A stretch of 64,000 nucleotides of DNA from Bacilli bacterium (lineage in GTDB: Bacteria; Bacillota_I; Bacilli_A; RFN20; CAG-826), in the NCBI GenBank assembly GCA_022482735.1, contig JAKVOO010000001.1:1399004-1463003 (forward strand). The letters are read 5' to 3'. Positions 6,708-61,379 of the stretch are shown here, piece after piece (position 1 is the stretch's first letter; every line of letters begins with the position of its first letter). The notes beneath the pieces are model-generated. The model saw only the letters and a list, made by a program, of their open reading frames with translations. It ran no database searches and was not told the DNA's origin. A program made the position numbers and the translations under genes.

Positions 6708-6784
6708 GCGCCCGTAGCTCAGTTGGATAGAGTACAACCCTCCGAAGGTTGGGGTCACACGTTCGAATCGTGCCGGGCGCACCA
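6708..6784 (+). tRNA. tRNA-Arg (anticodon CCG), ending in CCA.
   Basis: Manual cloverleaf with acceptor gcgcccg/cgggcgc, anticodon loop cuCCGaa and T-loop GTTCGAATC. Confidence 0.8.
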
Positions 6785-6955
6785 TGTAGATATTAAAGTA
6801 TGCTATCAACTGGCATACTTTTTTTATTTAATTCATAAATTCATAAAATAGAAGTTAATAAAATGTATTTTATAATGCGTATATTTTTTGAATTTAGGTA
6901 TATTTGTCCTAAAATATTGCTAATATGGCTTAAATCAACTAACCTTACAAAGGGA

Positions 6956-7297
6956 ATGGAAAATAAAATGATCGATAAAATTGAAGATAAACTTAAAAAG
7001 TTTGAATTGGATACACAAAAACTTTTTTTGAAACTTCGCGAACTCATATTTAAGTGTGAGCCTCAGGTGGAAGAACAGATGTGGGCGGGACTTCCATCAT
7101 ATTATTTTGGTGATTGTTTTATTCGGTTAATTCCTTTTGCAAAGTACATTAATATCGAAGCAAGTGGTATTAAAAACCATCTTGAAGAATTAAATGACCA
7201 TAAATTAACGCCCAAGAAAATGCTTAAATTAAGCACCAGTGAGAATATTCCTTGGGAATTAATGATTAGAATTTTCGATGAAACTTTACATAAATAA
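6956..7297 (+). CDS. Hypothetical small protein, DUF1801 (YdhG/YdeI)-like.
   Basis: The ORF with an ATG at MENKMIDK has a weak resemblance to the DUF1801 fold family. The ORF-track N-terminal extension is unlikely to be translated. Confidence 0.4.
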   Translation: MENKMIDKIEDKLKKFELDTQKLFLKLRELIFKCEPQVEEQMWAGLPSYYFGDCFIRLIPFAKYINIEASGIKNHLEELNDHKLTPKKMLKLSTSENIPWELMIRIFDETLHK

Positions 7298-7397
7298 ATG
7301 CAAAATCACAAAAAAATCTGTAGATAAGCGCTCAAATAAGCAATTGCGTATTTTTTCAATTGTCTATTTGATTAAATTTATATATAATAATTCCGCT

Positions 7398-7483
7398 GCC
7401 TCCGTGGTGAAATTGGTAGACGCAATGGACTCAAAATCCATCGGTTAACAGCCATGCCGGTTCGACTCCGGCCGGAGGCACCA
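7398..7483 (+). tRNA. tRNA-Leu (anticodon CAA), type II with a long variable arm, ending in CCA.
   Basis: Acceptor gcctccg/cggaggc, anticodon loop cuCAAaa, 86 nt. Confidence 0.8.
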
Positions 7484-7492
7484 TATCTTATT

Positions 7493-7568
7493 GCCGACTT
7501 AGCTCAATTGGTAGAGCAACTGAATCGTAATCAGTAGGTTGGGGGTTCAATTCCTCTAGTCGGCACCA
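7493..7568 (+). tRNA. tRNA-Thr (anticodon CGT), ending in CCA.
   Basis: Acceptor gccgact/agtcggc, anticodon loop auCGUaa, T-loop GTTCAATTC. Confidence 0.8.
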
Positions 7569-7580
7569 TTAGTCTTGTTA

Positions 7581-7603
7581 ACCGCCAAAAGGGCGGTTTT
7601 TTA
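7581..7603 (+). terminator. Rho-independent terminator after the tRNA-Leu/Thr pair.
   Basis: accgcc-aaaag-ggcggt hairpin followed by TTTTTT. Confidence 0.6.
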
Positions 7604-7704
7604 TATTAGTCAATATATTTGGCATAAGCACATTGTTAGTCATATTTAACTATCGCATTTATAATGACAATGTATTCATTATTCATAATGAATAAGGAGG
7701 AAAT

Positions 7705-8634
7705 ATGCGAAAAGGAAATAAGGTAAGTATCATTGGGGCGGGATTTGTTGGCAGTGCCATCACCTTTGCCATTATGGATTCAGGGCTAGCCAGTGATATT
7801 GTTCTTGTTGATATGAATAAGGAAAAGGCCGAAGGGGAAATAATGGATATTTCTCATGGAGCGGCCTTTGTCAAATCAGTTGATATGAAAGCAGGAGACT
7901 ATCCGGATCTTACTAACAGCGATATTGTCATTATAACGGCTGGTGCTGCTCAAAAACCAGGTGAAACCAGATTGGACTTAATCAATAAAAATGCGGCAAT
8001 ATTTAAATCTATTGTTCCTCAGGTCGTTAAATATGCTCCTGAGGCGATTATACTAGTTGTTTCTAATCCAGTTGATGTCTTATCATTTGTTGCCTACAAA
8101 TTAAGCGGACTTCCGGCTAATCGCGTACTCGGAAGTGGAACGGTTCTTGATTCATCGCGTTTGCGTTTCGCTCTAGCTAAGGAATTTGATCTCGATGCTC
8201 GCAATGTCCATGCTCATATTGTTGGAGAGCATGGTGACAGTGAATTCCCTAATTGGTCGGCAGCACTGATTGGCAGCATGAAGTTGGCTGATTATTGCCA
8301 AGAGCATGATATTGATCTTGGGAGTCTTGAGAAACGCATTTCGAAACAGGTTAGGGAATATGCCTATCGAATTATTGAGAAAAAAGGGTATACAAATTAT
8401 GCGATTGCTCTAGCCGTAAGAAGAATTGTCGAAGCTATCTTGCGCGATGAAAATTCAGTATTGTCAGTTTCTACCCTTGATGAAACAGGATCAGCATATT
8501 ACTCGGTTCCAACTGTTGTTGGCAAAAATGGGAAAATTATGAGTCTAGTTCCAAAGATGAATGATGAGGAAGGATTAAAACTTGCTGAAAGTCGGCAAAT
8601 ACTTAAGGAAACGATAGCCAAAATTAATCTTTAA
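7705..8634 (+). CDS. ldh: L-lactate dehydrogenase.
   Basis: KVSIIGAGFVGSA NAD-binding fold. GEHGDSEFPNWS active-site region. AAGGAGG RBS. Confidence 0.9.
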   Translation: MRKGNKVSIIGAGFVGSAITFAIMDSGLASDIVLVDMNKEKAEGEIMDISHGAAFVKSVDMKAGDYPDLTNSDIVIITAGAAQKPGETRLDLINKNAAIFKSIVPQVVKYAPEAIILVVSNPVDVLSFVAYKLSGLPANRVLGSGTVLDSSRLRFALAKEFDLDARNVHAHIVGEHGDSEFPNWSAALIGSMKLADYCQEHDIDLGSLEKRISKQVREYAYRIIEKKGYTNYAIALAVRRIVEAILRDENSVLSVSTLDETGSAYYSVPTVVGKNGKIMSLVPKMNDEEGLKLAESRQILKETIAKINL

Positions 8635-8791
8635 AACAGTTGGTTTCTAAAATTCATTGATTAATATTACTGTAATTTTTATTCTATCATTTTTTTAAAC
8701 AGCCTAGATTTACTTTTTATCCCTTTGGCAAAAATATCCTTGCAATGCGTTATATTAATATATATAATTACTAACGCAAGCCAGTTGCAAT

Positions 8792-8867
8792 GGGTATTTA
8801 GCTCAGCTGGGAGAGCATCTGTTTGACGTACAGAAGGTCGGGGGTTCGATCCCCTCAGTACCCACCA
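8792..8867 (+). tRNA. tRNA-Val (anticodon GAC), ending in CCA.
   Basis: Acceptor gggtatt/agtaccc, anticodon loop uuGACgu, T-loop GTTCGATCC. Confidence 0.8.
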
Positions 8868-8927
8868 TTGAAGCCTTGTTCACTAATTTAACGGTTGATA
8901 ATCGATTTCTTAGTGATTAAATAATTG

Positions 8928-8954
8928 GGAAGGTCATTTGACCTTCCTTTTTTA
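8928..8954 (+). terminator. Rho-independent terminator after tRNA-Val.
   Basis: ggaaggtca-ttt-tgaccttcc hairpin followed by TTTTTT. Confidence 0.6.
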
Positions 8955-9052
8955 GTTGATAATGCAATCTTTTGTCAAAGAAATGTAATTATTCACTAAT
9001 GGCAATGCAAGCCAATTTGTTTTTTGCTAAAATCATCATGTGAGGTTATTGT

Positions 9053-9742
9053 ATGCCAGAACGTTATTTATTAGAATCAGTCTATAATTTTCGAGATGTC
9101 GGAGGATATCCTTTACTAAATGGAAAACGCACAAAATACGGAGTTTTCTTTCGTTCAGGATCACTTAGTTATGCGACAAAAGAAGATATTAAAAAGATTG
9201 AAGATATTGGGATTAAAACTATTATCGATTTACGGGGGGATAAAGAACATAATGAATTACCAGATTTAACTCAAGCCAGCAAAAAAATCACCGCTTATCA
9301 TTTGCCGGTTAATGGTGGCGGGCGGGTGCCAGTCGATGAGGATGACATGCTTGCTAGTTATATTGAGATGATTGAAGAGCCAGTATCAGCCCGCGCAATT
9401 TTTTCTACGATTGCTCACGCCGAAAAGCCTATTCTCATTCATTGTACGGCGGGTAAAGATCGAACAGGGGTTTTTACTGCCATTTTACTTGCTTTAGCCG
9501 GGGTTACCCATGATGATATAAATGCCGACTACCTCTTATCAATTCCTTATCTGCGGGCCATGATGAGCCTAACGCTAGACCGGCATCCAGATTTTCCGCG
9601 CGCTTGTCTTTTCCCCAAAGCGGACTTTCTTAGTAAATTTTGGAATTTGTTTAGGGGAAGATACGGGCTGGTTAGCGAGTATTTAGATTACATTGGTCTT
9701 AGTGGGGAAGAAATTGACACTTTATCTCATCTATTAAAGTAA
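9053..9742 (+). CDS. Protein tyrosine/serine phosphatase (CX5R PTP-like, Y_phosphatase3 family).
   Basis: HCTAGKDRTG P-loop. GTGAGGT RBS. Confidence 0.7.
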   Translation: MPERYLLESVYNFRDVGGYPLLNGKRTKYGVFFRSGSLSYATKEDIKKIEDIGIKTIIDLRGDKEHNELPDLTQASKKITAYHLPVNGGGRVPVDEDDMLASYIEMIEEPVSARAIFSTIAHAEKPILIHCTAGKDRTGVFTAILLALAGVTHDDINADYLLSIPYLRAMMSLTLDRHPDFPRACLFPKADFLSKFWNLFRGRYGLVSEYLDYIGLSGEEIDTLSHLLK

Positions 9743-9845
9743 AAAGTATAGTTAACGTTAAGCGCTTACTTAAATTGTTAATCTTTGCTTTTCCTCGATT
9801 ATTTTTGTGATATAATTTTGATGAAAACAAATCGTGGAGGATTAT

Positions 9846-10868
9846 ATGAACAAAAAATGGCCGAAAATATTCGGTATTACTTTGGCTACTTTAGCTCTTA
9901 CGGGATGTACTTTATTTACGAATGCCAACAACTATGCTAATTCATTTAACGAAACAGCTTTTAAATATGTTACAGCGACAGGATCATTATCTTTTTCTAT
10001 GGAGGGCGAAAATATAATCGTCTCTTTTACCGATGAAGATACCGGTTTAACTGTGCAACTTGATGACGAAGATAAGGTGGCCTCATTTGGTATTGCCAAA
10101 GTCGCTTTTGATGATATGCGATTCGATGGTAATGATTTAGTGGCTACGGGTGACTACTCGCGATTCTCTATCGTTGATAATGAGCTCTTCTATAAGGATA
10201 TTACCAGTGTTGCTAAGACAAGCACGATTCCTTACACCCAATATAAATACTCCTCTAAGGAGGTAACTATTTCCGATGCTCGCGCTTTACGGGTAACCTG
10301 GGTAAATGATGATTTAAAGAGTTCCCTTCCCAATGGTTTCGGCGATTATGCCGATGTTTCGGTTGGCGATTATTTGAATATTTATATTGAGACCTCAGAA
10401 ACAGGAACAATTGGCGAAGAAGTTAAACCTTTTATTTCCGATGATATTGCTGGAGCGCTTTTTGCCGAAACAGTGACAACGGGGGACGAAAATGATGCTA
10501 CTGTGGTTACCAATGTCTATTTTGCCGATGAAACAGACACGGCAAATAAATTTTTGCTCGAAGATCAAAGTTCAACAACCACGGTAATTGAATATCGCTA
10601 TTTTGATTTAATTGATGCAGAAGGTAACGTTTTGCTTGCTAGTCCATCTAGTGCTAACTTTGAGATGGTAGAAGACAATCTATATTACATTGTCAGCGAT
10701 GGCATAACGGAAACAGCTCGTTATTCAATTTCCTTAACTGGAGCGGTTTTAGAAAAGATTGTTACCATCGATCCAATTGTTAATGGTTACCTAGTTGCTC
10801 CGGATACAACGCTAGTTGTGGGAGCGTTTAATGGGATTCATATTCTAGCAAGTTTGGTTGAGGCTTAA
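9846..10868 (+). CDS. Surface lipoprotein of unknown function.
   Basis: Signal peptide with the lipobox LALTGC. GGAGG RBS before the ATG at 9846. The track's 9834 start is a GTG. Confidence 0.55.
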   Translation: MNKKWPKIFGITLATLALTGCTLFTNANNYANSFNETAFKYVTATGSLSFSMEGENIIVSFTDEDTGLTVQLDDEDKVASFGIAKVAFDDMRFDGNDLVATGDYSRFSIVDNELFYKDITSVAKTSTIPYTQYKYSSKEVTISDARALRVTWVNDDLKSSLPNGFGDYADVSVGDYLNIYIETSETGTIGEEVKPFISDDIAGALFAETVTTGDENDATVVTNVYFADETDTANKFLLEDQSSTTTVIEYRYFDLIDAEGNVLLASPSSANFEMVEDNLYYIVSDGITETARYSISLTGAVLEKIVTIDPIVNGYLVAPDTTLVVGAFNGIHILASLVEA

Positions 10869-10886
10869 TCCAATAATAAAATATTG

Positions 10887-10914
10887 AAAGGCCACTTTTG
10901 GTGGCCTTTTCTTG
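10887..10914 (+). terminator. Rho-independent terminator.
   Basis: aaaggccac-tttt-ggtggccttt hairpin plus a T-run. Confidence 0.55.
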
Positions 10915-10952
10915 TTGCGCATATTTTTATCAACATATATAATGGCTTTGCT

Positions 10953-11026
10953 GCAGTCGTAGTTCAGTGGTAGAACTTCAGCTTCCCAAGCTGACTATGC
11001 GGGTTCGATTCCCGTCGACTGCTCCA
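10953..11026 (+). tRNA. tRNA-Gly (anticodon CCC), ending in CCA.
   Basis: Acceptor gcagtcg/cgactgc, anticodon loop uuCCCaa, T-loop GTTCGATTC. Confidence 0.8.
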
Positions 11027-11427
11027 TATCAAAACAACAGTGTTGATACAATAGTATCGACTTTATAGATTAGAAAATAGGGACATAATTTTTTTTCTTT
11101 ATTTATTACAATCCTGAATTTTAAAGGTTCGAGTTGAATAGATTAAATTTATTTTTGAAAATGTTAGTGTAAAAAAAACACAAAGGGTCAATAAAAAACA
11201 CGAAAGCTTAATAAGATAAAAACGATTGAACTTAATAAGTTATAATGTGTCGATAACGGCATAATAGGAAGTAGACCTGAACTTGGTTAATTCCAGAAGA
11301 TTCAAATAAACCTATTGATAAAAGATATAGACATGTTAATGGCTTGTTCTTTGATTGAATAGATTTAATCTATTGATGAAATAAAGAATATGATTGAAGC
11401 CTATCGATCATTCTCTAAAGATGATAA

Positions 11428-11857
11428 CTCTTGTATTGCTCCCACTGATTACGTTCAGTAATTATCTTTGTTTCTAATGTGTTTTATTTGCTCTCGATTA
11501 ATAAGGTAAGACACACATTTTTAAGCCAAGCAATCCATAAGCAATCTACGGTTAACTACTTTAATGAGCGGTTTTACGTTTTGTGTTAATATAATGTCAA
11601 ATATTGATAAAAAACTTATCGAATAACGAAAACATTATTATAGCTCCAATTGGTTACATTGATGGTAATTCATTGATTATCTTTGCTACTAATGTGTTTT
11701 ATTTGCTCTCTATTAATAAGGTAAGACATATATTTTCAAACCAAGCAATCTATAAACAATCTATGGTTAGCTACTTTAATGAGTGGTTTTATGTTTTGTG
11801 TTAATATAATGTCAAATATTGATAAAAAACTTATCGAATAACGAAAACATTATTATA
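11428..11857 (+). repeat. Two tandem copies of a 215-bp direct repeat (about 90% identical), immediately upstream of a methyltransferase-like gene. Each copy ends with ttaatataatgtcaaatattgataaaaaacttatcgaataacgaaaacattattata and carries a TATAAT-like box.
   Basis: Direct read. Copy 1 spans about 11428-11642 and copy 2 about 11643-11857. ORFs 11604 and 11819 share the identical N-terminus MIKNLSNNENIII because of the duplication. Confidence 0.85.
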
Positions 11858-11869
11858 AATTTTGAGAAA

Positions 11870-12790
11870 ATGCTTCATATGGGATTACAATTTAGTAGCG
11901 ATGAAATAGGAACAAAAATGAACTTAGCCAATATTGAACAACTAATTGATAAGCAAATAGATACAAATTACAGAACAAACATTTTTGAGCATGAATTAGC
12001 AAGCATTGATTCCAAATTAATAACGGGTTTAAAAAAATCTTTCTTATCGGAAGAAAGTAAGAAGATCATTCTCGAATATTGCACTGCATATTTTATGCAA
12101 AAGCTTATTAAATACGATCAATATATCAGTTTCACTGATGATGATGTTGTCGCCTTAAGAAATGTATATAAAGAAACACTAGAAGAAATAATTCATAGAA
12201 AGCGCCTATCTAAAAAAACAATCGAGAACAATCATTTTTTGAGAATAAAAGCTTTTTTATTACGCACCAATCCATTCTTAAAAGAAATAAGCAAAGATGG
12301 AATTAAGACTTTTGCTAACGAAGAATACTCCGCTAGTTTTCAAATGGAGATACTAGGGTTAGACAAGCACCATATAGTGGGCCCGATTTTAGATATCGGG
12401 TGTGGGCAAAACTTTAACTTAGTTAAGCACCTAAAAGAATTGGAAGTAGAAGTGTATGGCTTAGATCGATATGCTTCTAAGCAAGACAATATTTTAAAAG
12501 CCAACTTCTTATCGTTTGATTATGGCGTAAATAAATGGCAGTTTATTCTCTCAAATATGGCATTTTCAAATCATTTTAACCGCCATTTGGCTTTTAATGA
12601 TGAAAAGGTTGAAAAATACGCCACAGTATACTTCAAAATTCTAAATTCCTTGAAAGTTGGGGGAAAGTTTATTTATGCGCCAAGTATAATAGAAATCGAA
12701 AAATTATTAGATAAGAAAAAATTTTCGATTATTAATGAAGAGATTGGCTATGGTCTCTTTAGAACGATAATTGAAAAATTAACAAATTGA
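11870..12790 (+). CDS. Class I SAM-dependent methyltransferase-like protein with an approximately 190-aa N-terminal helical domain. Function unknown. The alternative start at 11915 (MNLANIEQ) has the better RBS.
   Basis: Motif I LDIGCGQN. Very AT-rich coding sequence. The ORF-track start at 11819 is a TTG inside the repeat. Confidence 0.5.
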   Translation: MLHMGLQFSSDEIGTKMNLANIEQLIDKQIDTNYRTNIFEHELASIDSKLITGLKKSFLSEESKKIILEYCTAYFMQKLIKYDQYISFTDDDVVALRNVYKETLEEIIHRKRLSKKTIENNHFLRIKAFLLRTNPFLKEISKDGIKTFANEEYSASFQMEILGLDKHHIVGPILDIGCGQNFNLVKHLKELEVEVYGLDRYASKQDNILKANFLSFDYGVNKWQFILSNMAFSNHFNRHLAFNDEKVEKYATVYFKILNSLKVGGKFIYAPSIIEIEKLLDKKKFSIINEEIGYGLFRTIIEKLTN

Positions 12791-12804
12791 TGTTGGAGGT
12801 TACT

Positions 12805-13431
12805 ATGGGCACAAAGAACAGCATAAATATCGAATCATATAATGCAATTGTCGATGATTGGGCTTCGATAAGAAATGGCAAGGAAGTAAACCAGTGTATT
12901 AAAGATTTTTGTAAACTTTTACCATCAAAGGCAAGCATATTGGATGTCGGCTGTGGGACAGGAAAGCCCATAGATGTCTATCTTTCGGACAACAAATTCA
13001 AGGTAGTGGGAATTGACATATCCAATAAGATGATAGATTTTGCTAAGGAATTGAACCTAGAGAACACCATATTTATTAATACGGATTTTTTAGACTATAA
13101 AAGTGATGATAAATTTGACGCGATTATTGCTTTTGATAGTTTTTGGCACATAGATCTTGATGATCAACTATCAATATACAAAAAGTGTGCTTCCCTATTA
13201 GTTGATGATGGCTATTTACTTTTTACTCATGGAATTAGACATGAAACTATTTTAGGGAAAATGTTTTCGCATAGTTTTTCCTATAGTGCCTTAGCAAAAG
13301 ATGAACTCAAAAAAGCCCTGACGGACAATAATTTTACTATCATATCTTGGTATGAGAATTATGAAGAGAAAACAACCGGGACTAGAGATCTTTTAGTTAT
13401 AGCTCAAAAAAGAACAAGTCATTCAAAATAA
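12805..13431 (+). CDS. Class I SAM-dependent methyltransferase, small-molecule MTase-like.
   Basis: Motif I ILDVGCGTGKP with the post-I acidic residue VGIDIS. GGAGG RBS. Overlaps the upstream gene end. Confidence 0.65.
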   Translation: MGTKNSINIESYNAIVDDWASIRNGKEVNQCIKDFCKLLPSKASILDVGCGTGKPIDVYLSDNKFKVVGIDISNKMIDFAKELNLENTIFINTDFLDYKSDDKFDAIIAFDSFWHIDLDDQLSIYKKCASLLVDDGYLLFTHGIRHETILGKMFSHSFSYSALAKDELKKALTDNNFTIISWYENYEEKTTGTRDLLVIAQKRTSHSK

Positions 13432-13626
13432 CTAATTGAAGTCCGTAAAATAGACCATAAATTCCCGATACAATAATTATTGCATAGCTTTAAACAACTC
13501 AATTGTGCAAATTGACGAAAAAGTTCATTTATTTACGTAGAAAACATTTAATCATTTTTACTAATTTGCTAAACTTAAAATATAAACGTGAATAACTTGT
13601 TTAGTTACTCCGAATTGGAGGATGTT

Positions 13627-14127
13627 ATGGAAAATTTTCGCGATCAATGTATCGATTTATTAGAGACCCGTGGGGTTACTTTAGAAGATATTGCTGAATG
13701 TGCCCGCTACTTACAGCAAGATTATCATATTGACTTAAAAAAAGAAGAATTGATGGATTCGGTTCTGAGTGTTATTGATAAACGAGAAGTTCAATTTGCG
13801 ATTATGACCGCAATCGAACTCGATATGCTGGCTGAACAAAGAAAAATGAATAATCCGAAATTACAAGAGTTACTCTTGCGTGACGAAGGATTATATGGGG
13901 TAGATGAAGTAATAGCCTATGGAATATGTAACTTATATGGCTCCATCGCTCTGACCAATTTTGGTTTTATAGATAAAAATAAATACGGAGTAATTGATAA
14001 GTTAAATCGAGCTGGTAAAAACGGAGATCGTTGCAATACTTTTATCGATGATATTGTTGGAGCGATTGCCGCTTCCGCTGCTTCTCGCTTTGCCCATCGG
14101 TGGACAAAGAAAGGAGAAAGCAAATGA
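13627..14127 (+). CDS. Phosphatidylglycerophosphatase A family protein (PgpA/YutG-like).
   Basis: C-terminal DDIVGAIAASAASRFAH motif typical of PgpA. GGAGG RBS at 13627. Confidence 0.55.
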   Translation: MENFRDQCIDLLETRGVTLEDIAECARYLQQDYHIDLKKEELMDSVLSVIDKREVQFAIMTAIELDMLAEQRKMNNPKLQELLLRDEGLYGVDEVIAYGICNLYGSIALTNFGFIDKNKYGVIDKLNRAGKNGDRCNTFIDDIVGAIAASAASRFAHRWTKKGESK

Positions 14128-14927
14128 TCAATATCCTTTATTTGGCCATACCAAACACTCAATCATTAGATTTTTGGCTTGAATTTGGACTTTCTACGCT
14201 TCTTGTGGCGGCGTTGGTGGTTTTTGTTTGGCTTTTGGTGCGGCGTTGGTTTGCTCGCATCTTTTTTACCTTGGGAGCGGCGATTTTTGAATTTGCCATT
14301 TTCTTCTCCTTTTCAAAATTAGCAATGGCGTCAATCTTATTTTTAGTGTTCTTAGCCACATTAATTACCATCGCTAATGTTGGCGATTTTCGGGTTTTTG
14401 CTGCTAACGCTCTTAAAGGGAAAAAATTATCTTTTTTTAGAGTAAAGGGGAAAAGTCGAAACTTTAAAGTCTTTGATAAGGAAGCTTTTTACCACGATAT
14501 TTTTGCCGCTACTACCAGTCTTTCAAAATCAAAAACCGGAGCAATAATGACTTTTGAAAAAAAGAATCCACTCAATGATTTTATTAAAAACGGAACGATG
14601 GTTAATGCTCCAGTATCAAGTGAACTCCTAGTGACAATTTTTTATCCAGGGACGCGTCTTCATGATGGAGCCGTGGTCATTCGCGATAATGTTATTTTGG
14701 CTGCTAGTGTCTATTATACAGCGACGACTAAACCGCTATCGGGTAAGTTTGGAAGCCGACATCGGGCGGCGATTGGCATCAGTGAAATCACCGATTCAGT
14801 TACCATTGTTGTCAGTGAGGAAACTGGGCGGATTTCAATTGCTTGCGCCGGGGAACTCGAATCGGTTAGCCTTGATAATTTTCCAAGGATATTCCGTGAA
14901 TATATGGAAGACGATGGAGAGAAGTAA
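14124..14927 (+). CDS. cdaA: Diadenylate cyclase CdaA (c-di-AMP synthase): 3 N-terminal TM helices plus a DAC domain.
   Basis: DGAVVIRDNVILAASVYY and GSRHRAAIGISEITDSVTIVVSEETGRISI DAC motifs. AAAGGAG RBS. Confidence 0.85.
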   Translation: MINILYLAIPNTQSLDFWLEFGLSTLLVAALVVFVWLLVRRWFARIFFTLGAAIFEFAIFFSFSKLAMASILFLVFLATLITIANVGDFRVFAANALKGKKLSFFRVKGKSRNFKVFDKEAFYHDIFAATTSLSKSKTGAIMTFEKKNPLNDFIKNGTMVNAPVSSELLVTIFYPGTRLHDGAVVIRDNVILAASVYYTATTKPLSGKFGSRHRAAIGISEITDSVTIVVSEETGRISIACAGELESVSLDNFPRIFREYMEDDGEK

Positions 14928-57627: not shown

Positions 57628-58635
57628 ATGAGAATATCATTACTATTTAGTATTTTGTCTATAGTTGGAACAAATTTGCTCGTATTTGAAACCAATCCAG
57701 CTTTAGTTATTAAAAACATTAATATTTTTCCTTTAGACAGGGAAATAAGCAATAATTTAGTTTTTACCGTTGAGCCATTTTTTACTGGATTAGGCGGAAT
57801 AACCGTATGTATTAGTGATTCAAGTCGTGATTTTGAATCAGTATTCGCCCAAGATACGACTTTTGTAAACGGACAAAATAAGACTTTTGTTGCAACAATT
57901 GCAAAACATACAATCGTAGAAAAAACCCGACTGACAATTGCCGTTTGGAAAAATAATGAAATCCGGAAATTCCGCAGTAAAACAATAACCATATTTCCTC
58001 GTGAAAATAAGCATATAAGTATAAATTTTGTAAGGCATTATGTACCCGAAGGAATGGTTTGCAATGTTTCATCGCTAGGTAATGTTCAGTATCAAAATGA
58101 GAACATTTGGTTTACAAATTTTAATGATAAAAAGGAGGAACCTATATATCATCACTTTGATTTTTCGCCTTTTCAAATGATGGTTACAAGTTCTTCACAT
58201 CATAGTGAAGAAATGTGGGCCCAATTAAATATTGAAGACGAAAACAACCTTTTTCCGGCATTTAGTAAGGAAGGAAAAGCTGTATTTCCTATGAAAATTA
58301 GACTTATTAACAATGTTTATATTTTCTCGTTAGTGCCCATCTATTTTAACACTCAAACCTATCAGTTATCGCAAGAGAGAATTCATCAGGGATATGAGGA
58401 AACTGAACTTGTATATTTTCCCAAGAATTCCTTTATGGAAGGAAGTAAACTGAAATTTTCCATCGAAATATATAAAATCGGATTTAATCGAACAACGGCC
58501 TCTTTTAATGGTGAAATAAGATATGCTCATCCTTTAATCGGCGATATGGATCAAGCAATGGCTTATATTTCTACTGGCGCAAGTTCGTATCAAGGGGTAG
58601 TTGGAGCAGAAAGGACGATATACACTCATGCTTAA
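57628..58635 (+). CDS. Hypothetical exported or membrane-anchored protein (N-terminal hydrophobic segment).
   Basis: N-terminus MRISLLFSILSIVGTNLLVF. Coupled to its neighbours (4-nt gap upstream, ATG…TAA overlap downstream). Confidence 0.4.
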   Translation: MRISLLFSILSIVGTNLLVFETNPALVIKNINIFPLDREISNNLVFTVEPFFTGLGGITVCISDSSRDFESVFAQDTTFVNGQNKTFVATIAKHTIVEKTRLTIAVWKNNEIRKFRSKTITIFPRENKHISINFVRHYVPEGMVCNVSSLGNVQYQNENIWFTNFNDKKEEPIYHHFDFSPFQMMVTSSSHHSEEMWAQLNIEDENNLFPAFSKEGKAVFPMKIRLINNVYIFSLVPIYFNTQTYQLSQERIHQGYEETELVYFPKNSFMEGSKLKFSIEIYKIGFNRTTASFNGEIRYAHPLIGDMDQAMAYISTGASSYQGVVGAERTIYTHA

Positions 58636-59014: not shown

Positions 59015-60056
59015 AAATGAGAAAAAAGTATGTGAGTTTATTTTTTCTTCTCCCTTAAGAACGTTACTAGACGACGAGGATGTTACCGACATTAGTTATA
59101 ATGGGGCTTCTATATTTTTCTTCACCCATAGACATGGGCGTCAAAAAAGTGATATTAAACTTTCTCACGGCGAAGCCAACGATTTTATTCGACAAATAGC
59201 CAATCTAAACAATGTTCTATTTTCGACTGCCAAGCCGATTATGGATACCTCAGTTGCTAATTTAAGAATTAGCGCAATCCACGACAGCCTTGCTCGAAAA
59301 AACGGAGAAAAAGTGACTCATTTTTCAATTCGAAAACACAGCCAAAATATAATCGATTTCCGGCAAAAAGAAGCGGGAAATAGTTTGCTCTTTGACTTAT
59401 TATCCGCTTATGTTCAATGTAAATTATCCATCGCCATCTCGGGTAAGGCTGGTAGTGGAAAGACCGAGATGCAAAAATACATTTTAACCCTCTTGCCGAA
59501 GAATGAACGAGTTGTTCTCATTGATTCAGTTGATGAAATTGAAGAGAGCAATCAATATGATCTAGATCTTTCGATTTGGCGAGTGAGCGATAATGATGAA
59601 CTTAGAACACAAGAATTGATTAGGGCTAGTTTAAGGCAAAATCCCGACTGGATTATTCTGGCTGAAGCGCGGGGCAAAGAAATGAAAGATATTCTATCCT
59701 CAATAAGAAGCGGACACCCGAGTATTTTTACTTGCCACAGCCTTAGAGCTGAATTAACTCCATATCGCATCTTAGAATTAATTGGTAATCCTAACCTAAT
59801 TGACTATTCAAAGGTGCGAATTGATGACATAACCAATCATATCCCGCTTTATGTTCATATGGAAAAGAAAATAACCAGTAAGGGAATTGTTCATCAGGTT
59901 AGTCAAGTGGTGATTTATGAACAGTCAAAACCGCATCTTATATATCAAAAAAAGGAAAAGCCTTTTTACTATCCTTTGCCCTTAGTCTTTGGCCAAATGA
60001 TAGGGGAAATTGATCTTAATTTACTTAAGGCTTGGAAAAATAAACAACATGATTAA
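59007..60056 (+). CDS. Secretion/pilus-assembly ATPase of the CpaF/TadA/VirB11 clade (T2SSE superfamily).
   Basis: Walker A ISGKAGSGKTEM. Asp box VVLIDSVDEIEE. Walker B DWIILAEARGKE. His box SGHPSIFTCHSLRA. Confidence 0.75.
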   Translation: MNENEKKVCEFIFSSPLRTLLDDEDVTDISYNGASIFFFTHRHGRQKSDIKLSHGEANDFIRQIANLNNVLFSTAKPIMDTSVANLRISAIHDSLARKNGEKVTHFSIRKHSQNIIDFRQKEAGNSLLFDLLSAYVQCKLSIAISGKAGSGKTEMQKYILTLLPKNERVVLIDSVDEIEESNQYDLDLSIWRVSDNDELRTQELIRASLRQNPDWIILAEARGKEMKDILSSIRSGHPSIFTCHSLRAELTPYRILELIGNPNLIDYSKVRIDDITNHIPLYVHMEKKITSKGIVHQVSQVVIYEQSKPHLIYQKKEKPFYYPLPLVFGQMIGEIDLNLLKAWKNKQHD

Positions 60057-60744
60057 GAGAATTTATATAGTCGCAATTTTTGCCATTATGTTTGAGATTA
60101 TTGCCGCTCTTATGTTTTGGCCTTTTCCCACTTTCTATTTGGCTTCGGCTTTTATTTTGCTGGGATTAATTGGCATTATTTATGAAAGTAATAGTATTTT
60201 TTCTTTGATAAAAAAACAACGATTGTGTTTCTCATTTATCAGCAATATGGTTGTAGCCATAAATGTTAAGAAGACAATTGAAGATGCCTTTATCTTTTAT
60301 CTTGAGCGAGAAAATAATCATTCGCTTATTAAATCTTTAGTCCATGGCTTATCAGCGCTTGAAGCAATTAGTGCTCTAAACGAGTACTTTTCTTACCCAA
60401 TTTACCAGAATTTTCAAGATATTATTACTATCTATATTAATGAAGGTGGTGACATTTTGACTCTAACAACCTACTTATTAGATGATATCCACCGAGCGAA
60501 GAGTCATCTTCAAAAAGTCATTAAATTATCACTAAGAAAATCTATCGAAGTTTTAATACTATGGATTTTATGTTTTTTGGCTGCGATTATGATGCGTTTT
60601 AGTATTAAAGATATTTATGAAGCAATCATCAGTAATTATTACATTTCTTTAGGCCTAGTTACTTTGTATGGGCTTCTAATAATGACCTTTTATTTTGGCT
60701 GTCGCCTTTTTAAAAGTGAAATCACTATTAAGGAGCAAGTATGA
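60049..60744 (+). CDS. GspF/TadB-like inner-membrane platform protein (half-size).
   Basis: 1 N-terminal and 2 C-terminal TM helices flanking a helical cytoplasmic domain (…LVHGLSALEAISALNEYF…INEGGDILTLTTYL). The ATG at 60049 overlaps the ATPase stop codon. The track's 60010 start is a TTG. Confidence 0.5.
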   Translation: MIKRIYIVAIFAIMFEIIAALMFWPFPTFYLASAFILLGLIGIIYESNSIFSLIKKQRLCFSFISNMVVAINVKKTIEDAFIFYLERENNHSLIKSLVHGLSALEAISALNEYFSYPIYQNFQDIITIYINEGGDILTLTTYLLDDIHRAKSHLQKVIKLSLRKSIEVLILWILCFLAAIMMRFSIKDIYEAIISNYYISLGLVTLYGLLIMTFYFGCRLFKSEITIKEQV

Positions 60745-61379
60745 ATAAAAGAAATCAATCACGAACTAAATTAATAATTACCATCGCAGTCGTTATCCTT
60801 CTTTTTCTCCTTCTTGTTATGGTTATAACTAAAAATCGTCTAATTATGAATATCGCCTTCATGAGCATTATTTTTTTTGTTTTTATGGTGGTTAGTTATC
60901 AGCATCGTTTAAGATCATTAAGAAATAAAGATAGATTGTCAAGCTTAGTTTATTTCTTGAGCAGAGTTCGCCATTTTCTAAATAATGATTCAACAATTTA
61001 TTATGCACTGACCGAAGCAAATAAATTGTCATCGCCGATTATTCAAGAAGATATTAAAGAGTTAATAGATGGAATTAGCCAAGATAAGTCGGTAATGCCA
61101 TTTATAAAATTCGCTCAGGCATTTAATTCTAATCTTATAGAAGAGATTATTATTCAACTATACCAATATGAAAACAACTCAAGTCAGAAAAATACATTTA
61201 ATAATTTCTTTCATCTTTTTTCGCAATTTCAGGAAATAGAAACAAATGAGCGTTTTGAACATTTGGAACAGTCTTACGTGACAGTATCTTTTTTGCCCAT
61301 GCTCGGCGGCGGTTTATTGATTCTTACATTGGCCTTAGGTGTTATGGCGTCGATAGGAGAAATTATTAATGGGTTCTAA
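60741..61379 (+). CDS. Second GspF/TadC-like platform protein (half-size).
   Basis: Same topology. AAGGAG RBS. Overlaps the upstream stop codon. Confidence 0.5.
   Translation: MNKRNQSRTKLIITIAVVILLFLLLVMVITKNRLIMNIAFMSIIFFVFMVVSYQHRLRSLRNKDRLSSLVYFLSRVRHFLNNDSTIYYALTEANKLSSPIIQEDIKELIDGISQDKSVMPFIKFAQAFNSNLIEEIIIQLYQYENNSSQKNTFNNFFHLFSQFQEIETNERFEHLEQSYVTVSFLPMLGGGLLILTLALGVMASIGEIINGF

Follow-up and report, generated by a model that had tools for sequence, protein, structure and literature searches.

The locus considered here raises the question of whether two methyltransferase genes situated beside a tRNA gene, and preceded by a tandemly duplicated 215-bp sequence, represent a horizontally acquired module, and whether the duplication influences their expression, as was suggested in a preliminary description of the DNA. 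The genes lie within a 64,000-nucleotide stretch of contig JAKVOO010000001.1 (assembly GCA_022482735.1; the whole of this stretch is termed the window, and coordinates refer to it unless prefixed otherwise), which derives from an uncultured gut/environmental Bacilli lineage related to Erysipelotrichia. The explanation that we regard as probably correct as a whole is that of an old, immobile islet with a turnover-prone spacer, in which the duplication is neutral or mildly modulatory. According to this explanation, an islet of approximately 2.6 kb (11027–13626) is located between tRNA-Gly(CCC) and pgpA-cdaA-glmM, and carries a putative two-gene operon of mutually unrelated class-I S-adenosylmethionine (SAM)-dependent methyltransferases (MT1 and MT2) that is retained by purifying selection. 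The DNA between the tRNA gene and the promoter would constitute a non-coding spacer undergoing fast turnover by illegitimate recombination, for which at least three structural alleles exist in a single species, that of the window being the 215-bp tandem duplication. We infer that this duplication lacks a strong regulatory effect; it is most likely neutral or mildly modulatory, an effect on expression being possible.

The distribution of the methyltransferase pair was assessed through the gene that bounds the islet on its right, i.e. the PgpA-family gene at 13627–14127. A protein identical to its product was found on 16 metagenomic contigs, ten of which were retrieved (L001–L010), and MT1 and MT2 were present on every same-species contig that reached far enough, at 96–100% amino-acid identity. 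A scan for PgpA across one genome per species yielded 64 loci, the nearest of which (66–75% identity) belong to metagenome-assembled genomes (MAGs) that carry the labels Bacilli, Bacillota or Erysipelotrichia; those of Erysipelothrix come next. Neither MT1 nor MT2 was detected within 10 kb of pgpA in any of the 25 related species with a conserved pgpA-cdaA-glmM arrangement (tblastn, E ≤1e-8). The gap between tRNA-Gly(CCC) and pgpA, as delimited with ARAGORN, measures 188–277 bp in L014, L015, L017, L019, L022 and L024, and other species carry 1.5–6.5 kb of ordinary genes in it (a deaminase, an M3 peptidase, a transporter and a HipA-like gene). These short empty gaps, together with the absence of the pair from relatives, indicate that the methyltransferase pair is an insertion at the tRNA-Gly(CCC) site as compared with distant relatives, the ancestral order having probably been tRNA-Thr(CGT), tRNA-Val(GAC) and tRNA-Gly(CCC) directly before pgpA. 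Shortly before pgpA, the window contains a conserved AT-rich element, TTTAATNA...TTTGCTAAA... (13535–13590), which is also located approximately 40–75 bp upstream of pgpA in L015, L017, L019 and L022; it is probably the promoter or operator of pgpA-cdaA-glmM. From the common pgpA-proximal motif TTTGCTAAA, the insertion can be judged to end on its right within approximately 100 bp of the MT2 stop codon. The closest homologues outside the clade display 43% (MT1) and 57% (MT2) identity and occur singly, with unrelated neighbours, in Fibrobacter, Bacteroidales, Bacillaceae and other Bacilli MAGs; the pairing of MT1 and MT2 is particular to this clade. A protein-based scan of metagenomic data contributed one distant homologue and, apart from that, a contig that had already been retrieved. 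Gene-neighbourhood look-ups of the homologues identified no conserved partner gene that would hint at a pathway.

The age of the islet and the selection acting on it were evaluated by comparison with MAG GCA_035326105.1 (L079, with L080 and L075), which can be aligned collinearly to 12 kb of the window at approximately 89.6% nucleotide identity and is thus considered a sister species. MT1 and MT2 are present at the same locus in this species. Nucleotide identity to L079 amounts to 88.7% for MT1, 93.8% for MT2 and 83–94% for flanking genes, and the corresponding dN/dS values are 0.22, 0.08 and 0.007–0.08. Judged from these ratios, both methyltransferases are functional and under purifying selection, which is more relaxed in the case of MT1. 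Synonymous divergence between the window and L079 was 0.28–0.36 for MT1, MT2, pgpA and cdaA (11751–14927), and 0.63–1.5 for the lactate dehydrogenase, phosphatase, lipoprotein, glmM and Nudix genes on either side, which suggests that the block from 11751 to 14927 was exchanged more recently between the two lineages via homologous recombination. Separately, the MT1 gene of L006 (L006:909–1836) carries a 1-bp frameshift at a poly-A run (KKTIENN to KKNNREQ), which is either a sequencing or assembly error or the mark of an MT1-inactivated strain.

Both genes had been described as visibly more AT-rich than their surroundings, and this was borne out, as they rank first, or nearly so, in AT content among the 51 genes of the window: no gene has a lower GC content than MT1 (0.305; z −2.5), and the value for MT2 (0.333) is also low. 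Three consecutive 1-kb segments between 11001 and 14000 have GC contents of 0.278, 0.323 and 0.318, against approximately 0.37–0.41 on both sides. The deficit is, however, located mainly at codon positions 1 and 2, and GC content at third positions (GC3) is 0.296 for MT1 (z −1.4) and 0.313 for MT2 (z −0.9), where the window mean is 0.343 (standard deviation 0.034). As GC3 is thus only about one standard deviation below the mean, the low overall GC is mostly a matter of amino-acid composition, the synonymous sites of both genes are essentially equilibrated with those of the host, and the acquisition was not recent.

The islet therefore displays two features expected of a horizontally acquired module, namely an empty site in relatives and atypical composition, and to this extent the proposal of horizontal acquisition stands; recency and mobility are not supported. 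No integrase or other mobility gene was found within 11027–13626, where MT1 and MT2 are the only open reading frames (ORFs) exceeding 70 aa. A 23-nt query representing the tRNA 3′ end, allowing up to three mismatches, retrieved only itself and the unrelated tRNA-Gly(GCC), and blastn-short gave no match longer than 10 nt to this 3′ end. Neither hallmark of an integrase-driven island (an integrase, and attL/attR repeats) is thus present, and the islet is old, fixed and stably inherited. It resembles tRNA-adjacent genomic islands in its location 3′ of a tRNA gene, its absence from relatives, its low GC, its accessory cargo and its strain-variable content. Conversely, it differs from them in that it lacks an integrase, a repeat of the tRNA 3′ end and any mobility gene, its synonymous composition is near that of its host, and it is common to two species at approximately 90% identity. 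It is an old fixed insertion, or the remnant of one, and not an active island.

The features of the locus are the following.

10953–11026, plus strand: tRNA-Gly(CCC) (ARAGORN; Rfam tRNA, 70.4 bits), the left anchor of the insertion site
11053–11437, no strand: AT-rich non-coding spacer, strain-variable, carrying a 27-bp palindromic motif twice
11438–11642, no strand: copy 1 of the tandem unit, the diverged copy, differing from copy 2 by 15 substitutions and the deletion of 10 bp
11643–11857, no strand: copy 2 of the tandem unit, near-identical to the single copy of other strains
11862–11891, plus strand: predicted core promoter of the MT1-MT2 operon (TTGAGA-18 nt-TACAAT), outside the repeat
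11918–12790, plus strand: MT1, 290 aa, with an N-terminal helical domain and a predicted C-terminal class-I SAM methyltransferase fold
12805–13431, plus strand: MT2, 208 aa, a generic class-I SAM methyltransferase by its profile matches
13627–14127, plus strand: PgpA-family gene (Pfam PgpA, E 1.7e-15), the right anchor and first gene of pgpA-cdaA-glmM

The region downstream of tRNA-Gly(CCC), described as approximately 800 bp of AT-rich non-coding DNA, does have this character: 891 bp with a GC content of 0.268 separate the tRNA gene from the MT1 ATG, and the only ORFs of at least 30 aa within this stretch are small ones inside the repeat and one of 30 aa on the minus strand. The 27-bp palindromic motif of the spacer (TTGAATAGATTWAATYTATT...) occurs at 11134–11160 and 11355–11381, 221 bp apart; its repetition (z 5.3) was reached by none of 300 shuffles, and no further occurrence with two or fewer mismatches was found within the window. 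The possibility that older, decayed copies of the 215-bp unit make up the entire 800-bp spacer was considered and rejected (z −0.16); only the separate 27-bp motif is repeated there.

The tandem repeat itself is real and far beyond chance. Tandem Repeats Finder reports a period of 215 bp and 1.9 copies with 92% matches (score 703) at 11454–11857, and when a 10-bp indel is allowed the homology between the copies extends leftwards to the junction base G11438; the left end had previously been set about 10 bp too far out, at 11428. The copies differ by 15 substitutions and the 10-bp indel. Each contains, as had been noted, a TATAAT box (11590 and 11805) and the partial palindrome TTGATAAAAAACTTATCGAA (11604 and 11819), and a TTG-initiated ORF beginning MIKNLSNNENIII is present at 11604 and again at 11819. 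The latter had been taken for a pseudo-start ending each copy; the ORF does occur in both, and the MIKNLS... start is simply an in-frame TTG that precedes the real one. The duplication junction is CATTATTATAGCTCCAATTGG (…CATTATTATA|GCTCCAATTGG…) and lies in AT-rich sequence that shares only a short and imperfect TTATA similarity with the left flank, a configuration that would fit illegitimate recombination or replication slippage as the mechanism of duplication.

Comparison of strains, which had been proposed for the copy number of the unit, revealed that this number is polymorphic, with two, one or no copies. In strains L002 (whose contig is also designated L084) and L003, a window-like spacer is accompanied by one unit only, copy 1 being the one that is missing, and copy 2 of the window is 97.7% identical to the unit of L002 and 98.9–100% identical to that of L003. 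L001, L004 and L006 possess neither the unit nor the window spacer, and instead carry a 2.2-kb cassette that spans from 26 bp past the tRNA to window position 11863/4, where homology resumes. The left part of the spacer is thus kept in L002 and L003, and replaced in L001, L004, L006 and the sister species L079. In the sister species the tRNA is followed by 335 bp of unrelated DNA, and homology to the window begins at 11751, such that only the 3′ 107 bp of the unit (11751–11857) are present, in a single copy (L075 and L079). This segment is the ancestral upstream sequence of MT1, and its presence alone in the sister species indicates that the unit is a composite, in which approximately 108 bp are strain-specific spacer and 107 bp belong to the conserved upstream region.

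The cassette of the alternative allele has contents of its own. It includes an intact gene (L001:6176–6892) encoding a NERD nuclease-related domain and a Top1-type zinc ribbon, and, abutting the MT1 promoter, a frameshifted and 5′-truncated HATPase_c_4 pseudogene on the minus strand (L001:7703–8260; AlbA_2/Schlafen-type ATP-binding protein). No integrase was found in this allele, which holds the NERD gene and the pseudogene instead. Furthermore, 35 bp at the head of the unit in L003 (L003:8017–8051, corresponding to window position 11675/6) are 100% identical to L001:8013–8047, within the HATPase_c_4 pseudogene, and the surrounding sequence bears no significant similarity to L001; this patch could be the scar of a micro-recombination event or a chimera created during metagenome assembly.

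The bearing of the duplication on transcription depends on where the promoter lies. A consensus scan of 10800–13700 identified a single strong sigma-70-like site, TTGAGA-18-TACAAT (10 of 12 matches), which begins 4 nt past the end of copy 2 and ends approximately 27 nt before the ATG. Its counterpart in the sister species (L075 and L079) reads TTGAAA-18-TACAAT, and no non-coding stretch of the locus is better conserved than the 55 bp that connect this site with the start codon. The homology breakpoint of the NERD cassette falls within the −35 element of the same site. For the TATAAT of the unit, no −35 hexamer with at least four of six matches was found 16–18 nt upstream, nor a TG extension, and the scan made no call there. 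The duplication would therefore most likely cover positions −40 to −255, approximately, relative to the predicted transcription start, and so comprise neither the promoter nor the mRNA leader. The earlier designation of the repeat as a duplicated promoter or leader is accordingly not retained, given that the best site lies past the repeat and has been retained in the sister species, and that the TATAAT of the unit is without a usable −35.

The alternative that survives best, although we consider it unlikely, is that each copy is a functional promoter or operator, composed of the TATAAT and the TTGATAA...TTATCGAA palindrome, and that copy number varies the expression of MT1-MT2. Both copies do contain the perfect TATAAT and the partial palindrome, strains differ in having two, one or no copies, and the 65-bp 3′ segment in which both motifs lie is 100% identical in both copies, L002 and L003, as against a divergence of 12% in the remainder of copy 1. 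Moreover, upstream tandem duplications are reported to alter expression in other bacteria. However, the TATAAT lacks a usable −35 and was not called by the scan; its counterpart in the sister species is AATATT or TAAAAT, with the palindrome altered to TTGACAAGAAGCATGTTAAA. Additionally, a better promoter, conserved across species, is available past the repeat and before the start codon. The identity of the 65-bp segment was assessed against the preceding 124 ungapped positions, which hold all 15 mismatches (hypergeometric probability approximately 0.002, post hoc). As the same segment is only approximately 77% identical between the window species and the sister species, and less conserved than coding DNA, long-term constraint is unlikely, and the identity is best explained by gene conversion or by a mosaic origin of copy 1.

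Several points nevertheless weigh against the preferred explanation. A perfect TATAAT is present in each copy, and the 65-bp identity could reflect constraint on both copies as functional regulatory DNA. The promoter position and the operon structure are predictions, the promoter being a consensus match only; promoter-like matches number 12 as against 16.1 in shuffled sequences, and such matches are weak evidence in AT-rich DNA. Furthermore, the two-copy state is seen solely in the assembly, and informative same-species alleles that carry the unit number only three.

The duplication can also be set beside upstream repeats that are known to alter expression. It shares with them a head-to-tail arrangement upstream of genes and a copy number that is polymorphic among strains, and it differs in having a 215-bp unit in two copies that are 8% apart and located upstream of the predicted core promoter. 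Considered as a possible contingency locus, it shows copy numbers of two, one and zero among strains, copies that differ by 8% and an indel, and three unit-carrying alleles; a unit of this length in two copies 8% apart would be atypical of contingency repeats, which slip rapidly.

On its right the duplication ends at 11857, no more than 6 bp from the position where homology resumes after the NERD cassette (11863/4, inside the predicted −35), and in the NERD-cassette strains this element reads CCGAGG instead of TTGAGA. That bases 11857–11864 form a preferred recombination point, at which swapped or duplicated upstream cassettes vary the expression of the methyltransferases, is a very improbable reading. 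If true, it would represent a cassette-swap form of regulatory variation beside a tRNA gene.

Less credible still is the proposition that the unit is a mobile or decayed element, such as a miniature inverted-repeat transposable element or a remnant of the HATPase_c_4 gene. The 35-bp patch of the L003 unit matches the L001 pseudogene sequence, and the unit and the pseudogene hold equivalent positions; outside the patch, however, the unit and the L001 region are not significantly similar (z 1.4–1.8). No other copy of the unit was found within the 64-kb window, neither the unit nor the spacer had a match in phage or plasmid collections, and no terminal inverted repeats were found.

We attach equally little probability to the two-copy state being an assembly artefact, for instance two strain alleles joined head to tail. 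The lineage is known from metagenomes only, copy 1 resembles a divergent allele of copy 2, and L003 contains a possibly chimeric patch. However, the junction is clean, both flanks are collinear with single-copy strains, and assemblers usually collapse repeats rather than expand them; the 15 substitutions and the 10-bp indel between the copies also render an artefact unlikely. The notion that the unit is a doubled structured RNA (a riboswitch, leader or small RNA) or small protein gene, prompted by ORFs of 36 and 66 aa in the copies and a 69-aa gene called in L002 by one gene caller, deserves hardly any credence, since Rfam matches, sought at permissive E-values, were no better than E 0.6 (nonsensical snoRNA ones), minimum free energies were unexceptional (z −0.99 for the plus and +0.33 for the minus strand, with no unusual fold), 7 of 26 aligned residues of the small plus-strand ORF differ between the copies, stop codons interrupt every frame of the minus strand, and the 5′ half of the ORF is missing in the sister species.

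With an old islet behind a turnover-prone spacer as the preferred explanation, the nature of its two gene products was considered. For MT1, the most likely start is the ATG at 11918, which has an AGGA ribosome-binding site 6 nt upstream and matches the N-termini of approximately 40 homologues of 290–295 aa. MT2 most likely starts at the ATG at 12805, preceded by GGAGG and located 14 nt past the MT1 stop codon. These starts give proteins of 290 and 208 aa, in place of the 300 and 209 aa given before, and the genes are adjacent and not overlapping; their description as two class-I SAM methyltransferases is upheld for MT2 by Pfam and for MT1 by its predicted fold.

The proposed profile and structure searches yielded methyltransferase folds for both proteins and no housekeeping equivalog for either. 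MT2 exceeds the Pfam cutoffs for Methyltransf_25 (61 bits, cutoff 27; E 1.9e-16), Methyltransf_11 (54.7 bits, cutoff 21.2), Methyltransf_31, Methyltransf_23 and Methyltransf_12, and contains the glycine-rich motif I ILDVGCGTGKP, and is on these matches clearly a class-I SAM methyltransferase; its sequence neighbours in the PDB are generic small-molecule N-, O- and C-methyltransferases. MT1 matched Methyltransf_23 only, at 16.7 bits against a cutoff of 27, with no NCBIfam match and no PDB sequence match under E 0.4. Its predicted fold is that of a class-I Rossmann-like methyltransferase with conserved motif I and an acidic residue after strand 2, and MT1 is thus a class-I methyltransferase by predicted fold, its sequence profiles being sub-threshold. 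The N-terminal helical domain of approximately 125 residues gave no structural match, and MT1 has an invariant SNHF motif. MT1 belongs to a widespread, uncharacterised family of approximately 290 aa without a Pfam model.

The closest known systems are the generic small class-I methyltransferases (Methyltransf_25, _11 and _23), the structural neighbours including phosphoethanolamine N-methyltransferases, PH0226, MM_2633 and TehB-like proteins; MT1 differs from this group in its extra N-terminal helical domain, in its SNHF motif and in belonging to a family without a characterised member. No NCBIfam equivalog was passed by MT1 or MT2 (best scores at most 49 bits against cutoffs of 100–600). This, together with the absence of both genes from related genomes, renders a housekeeping rRNA or tRNA role unlikely, and small molecules or another non-housekeeping target are most likely modified. 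Membership of an anti-phage defence system (restriction-modification, MADS or others) was considered and rejected: PADLOC returned no match for MT1 and, for MT2, only the methyltransferase domain of mad2 (positions 283–401 of 492), a generic domain match, with no partner genes.

Two further regions of the window were noted. The genes for tRNA-Thr(CGT), tRNA-Val(GAC) and tRNA-Gly(CCC) span approximately 330 bp in relatives L015, L017, L019 and L022; in the window (6708–11026) the same tRNAs are split by an L-lactate dehydrogenase gene (7705–8634) and by tyrosine phosphatase and lipoprotein genes (9053–10868), all of normal GC content. The entire tRNA cluster, beyond its tRNA-Gly side, has thus taken up insertions. 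Additionally, genes at 57628–58635 and 60049–61379 are as AT-rich as the methyltransferase genes (GC 0.33, 0.307 and 0.310) and have either no Pfam family or a weak match to Wzy_C (O-antigen ligase-like); the genes between 57628 and 61379 may form a surface-polysaccharide region of foreign origin.

The biological importance of these findings is modest, as they describe ordinary islet biology and ordinary structural polymorphism and do not involve a new kind of element. They document the site adjacent to tRNA-Gly(CCC) as content-variable inside a single uncultured Bacilli species, and place the uncharacterised MT1 family beside another orphan methyltransferase in a putative operon. Should expression be altered by the upstream alleles, the strains, with zero, one or two units or a replaced −35, would provide a natural series for variation in promoter context.

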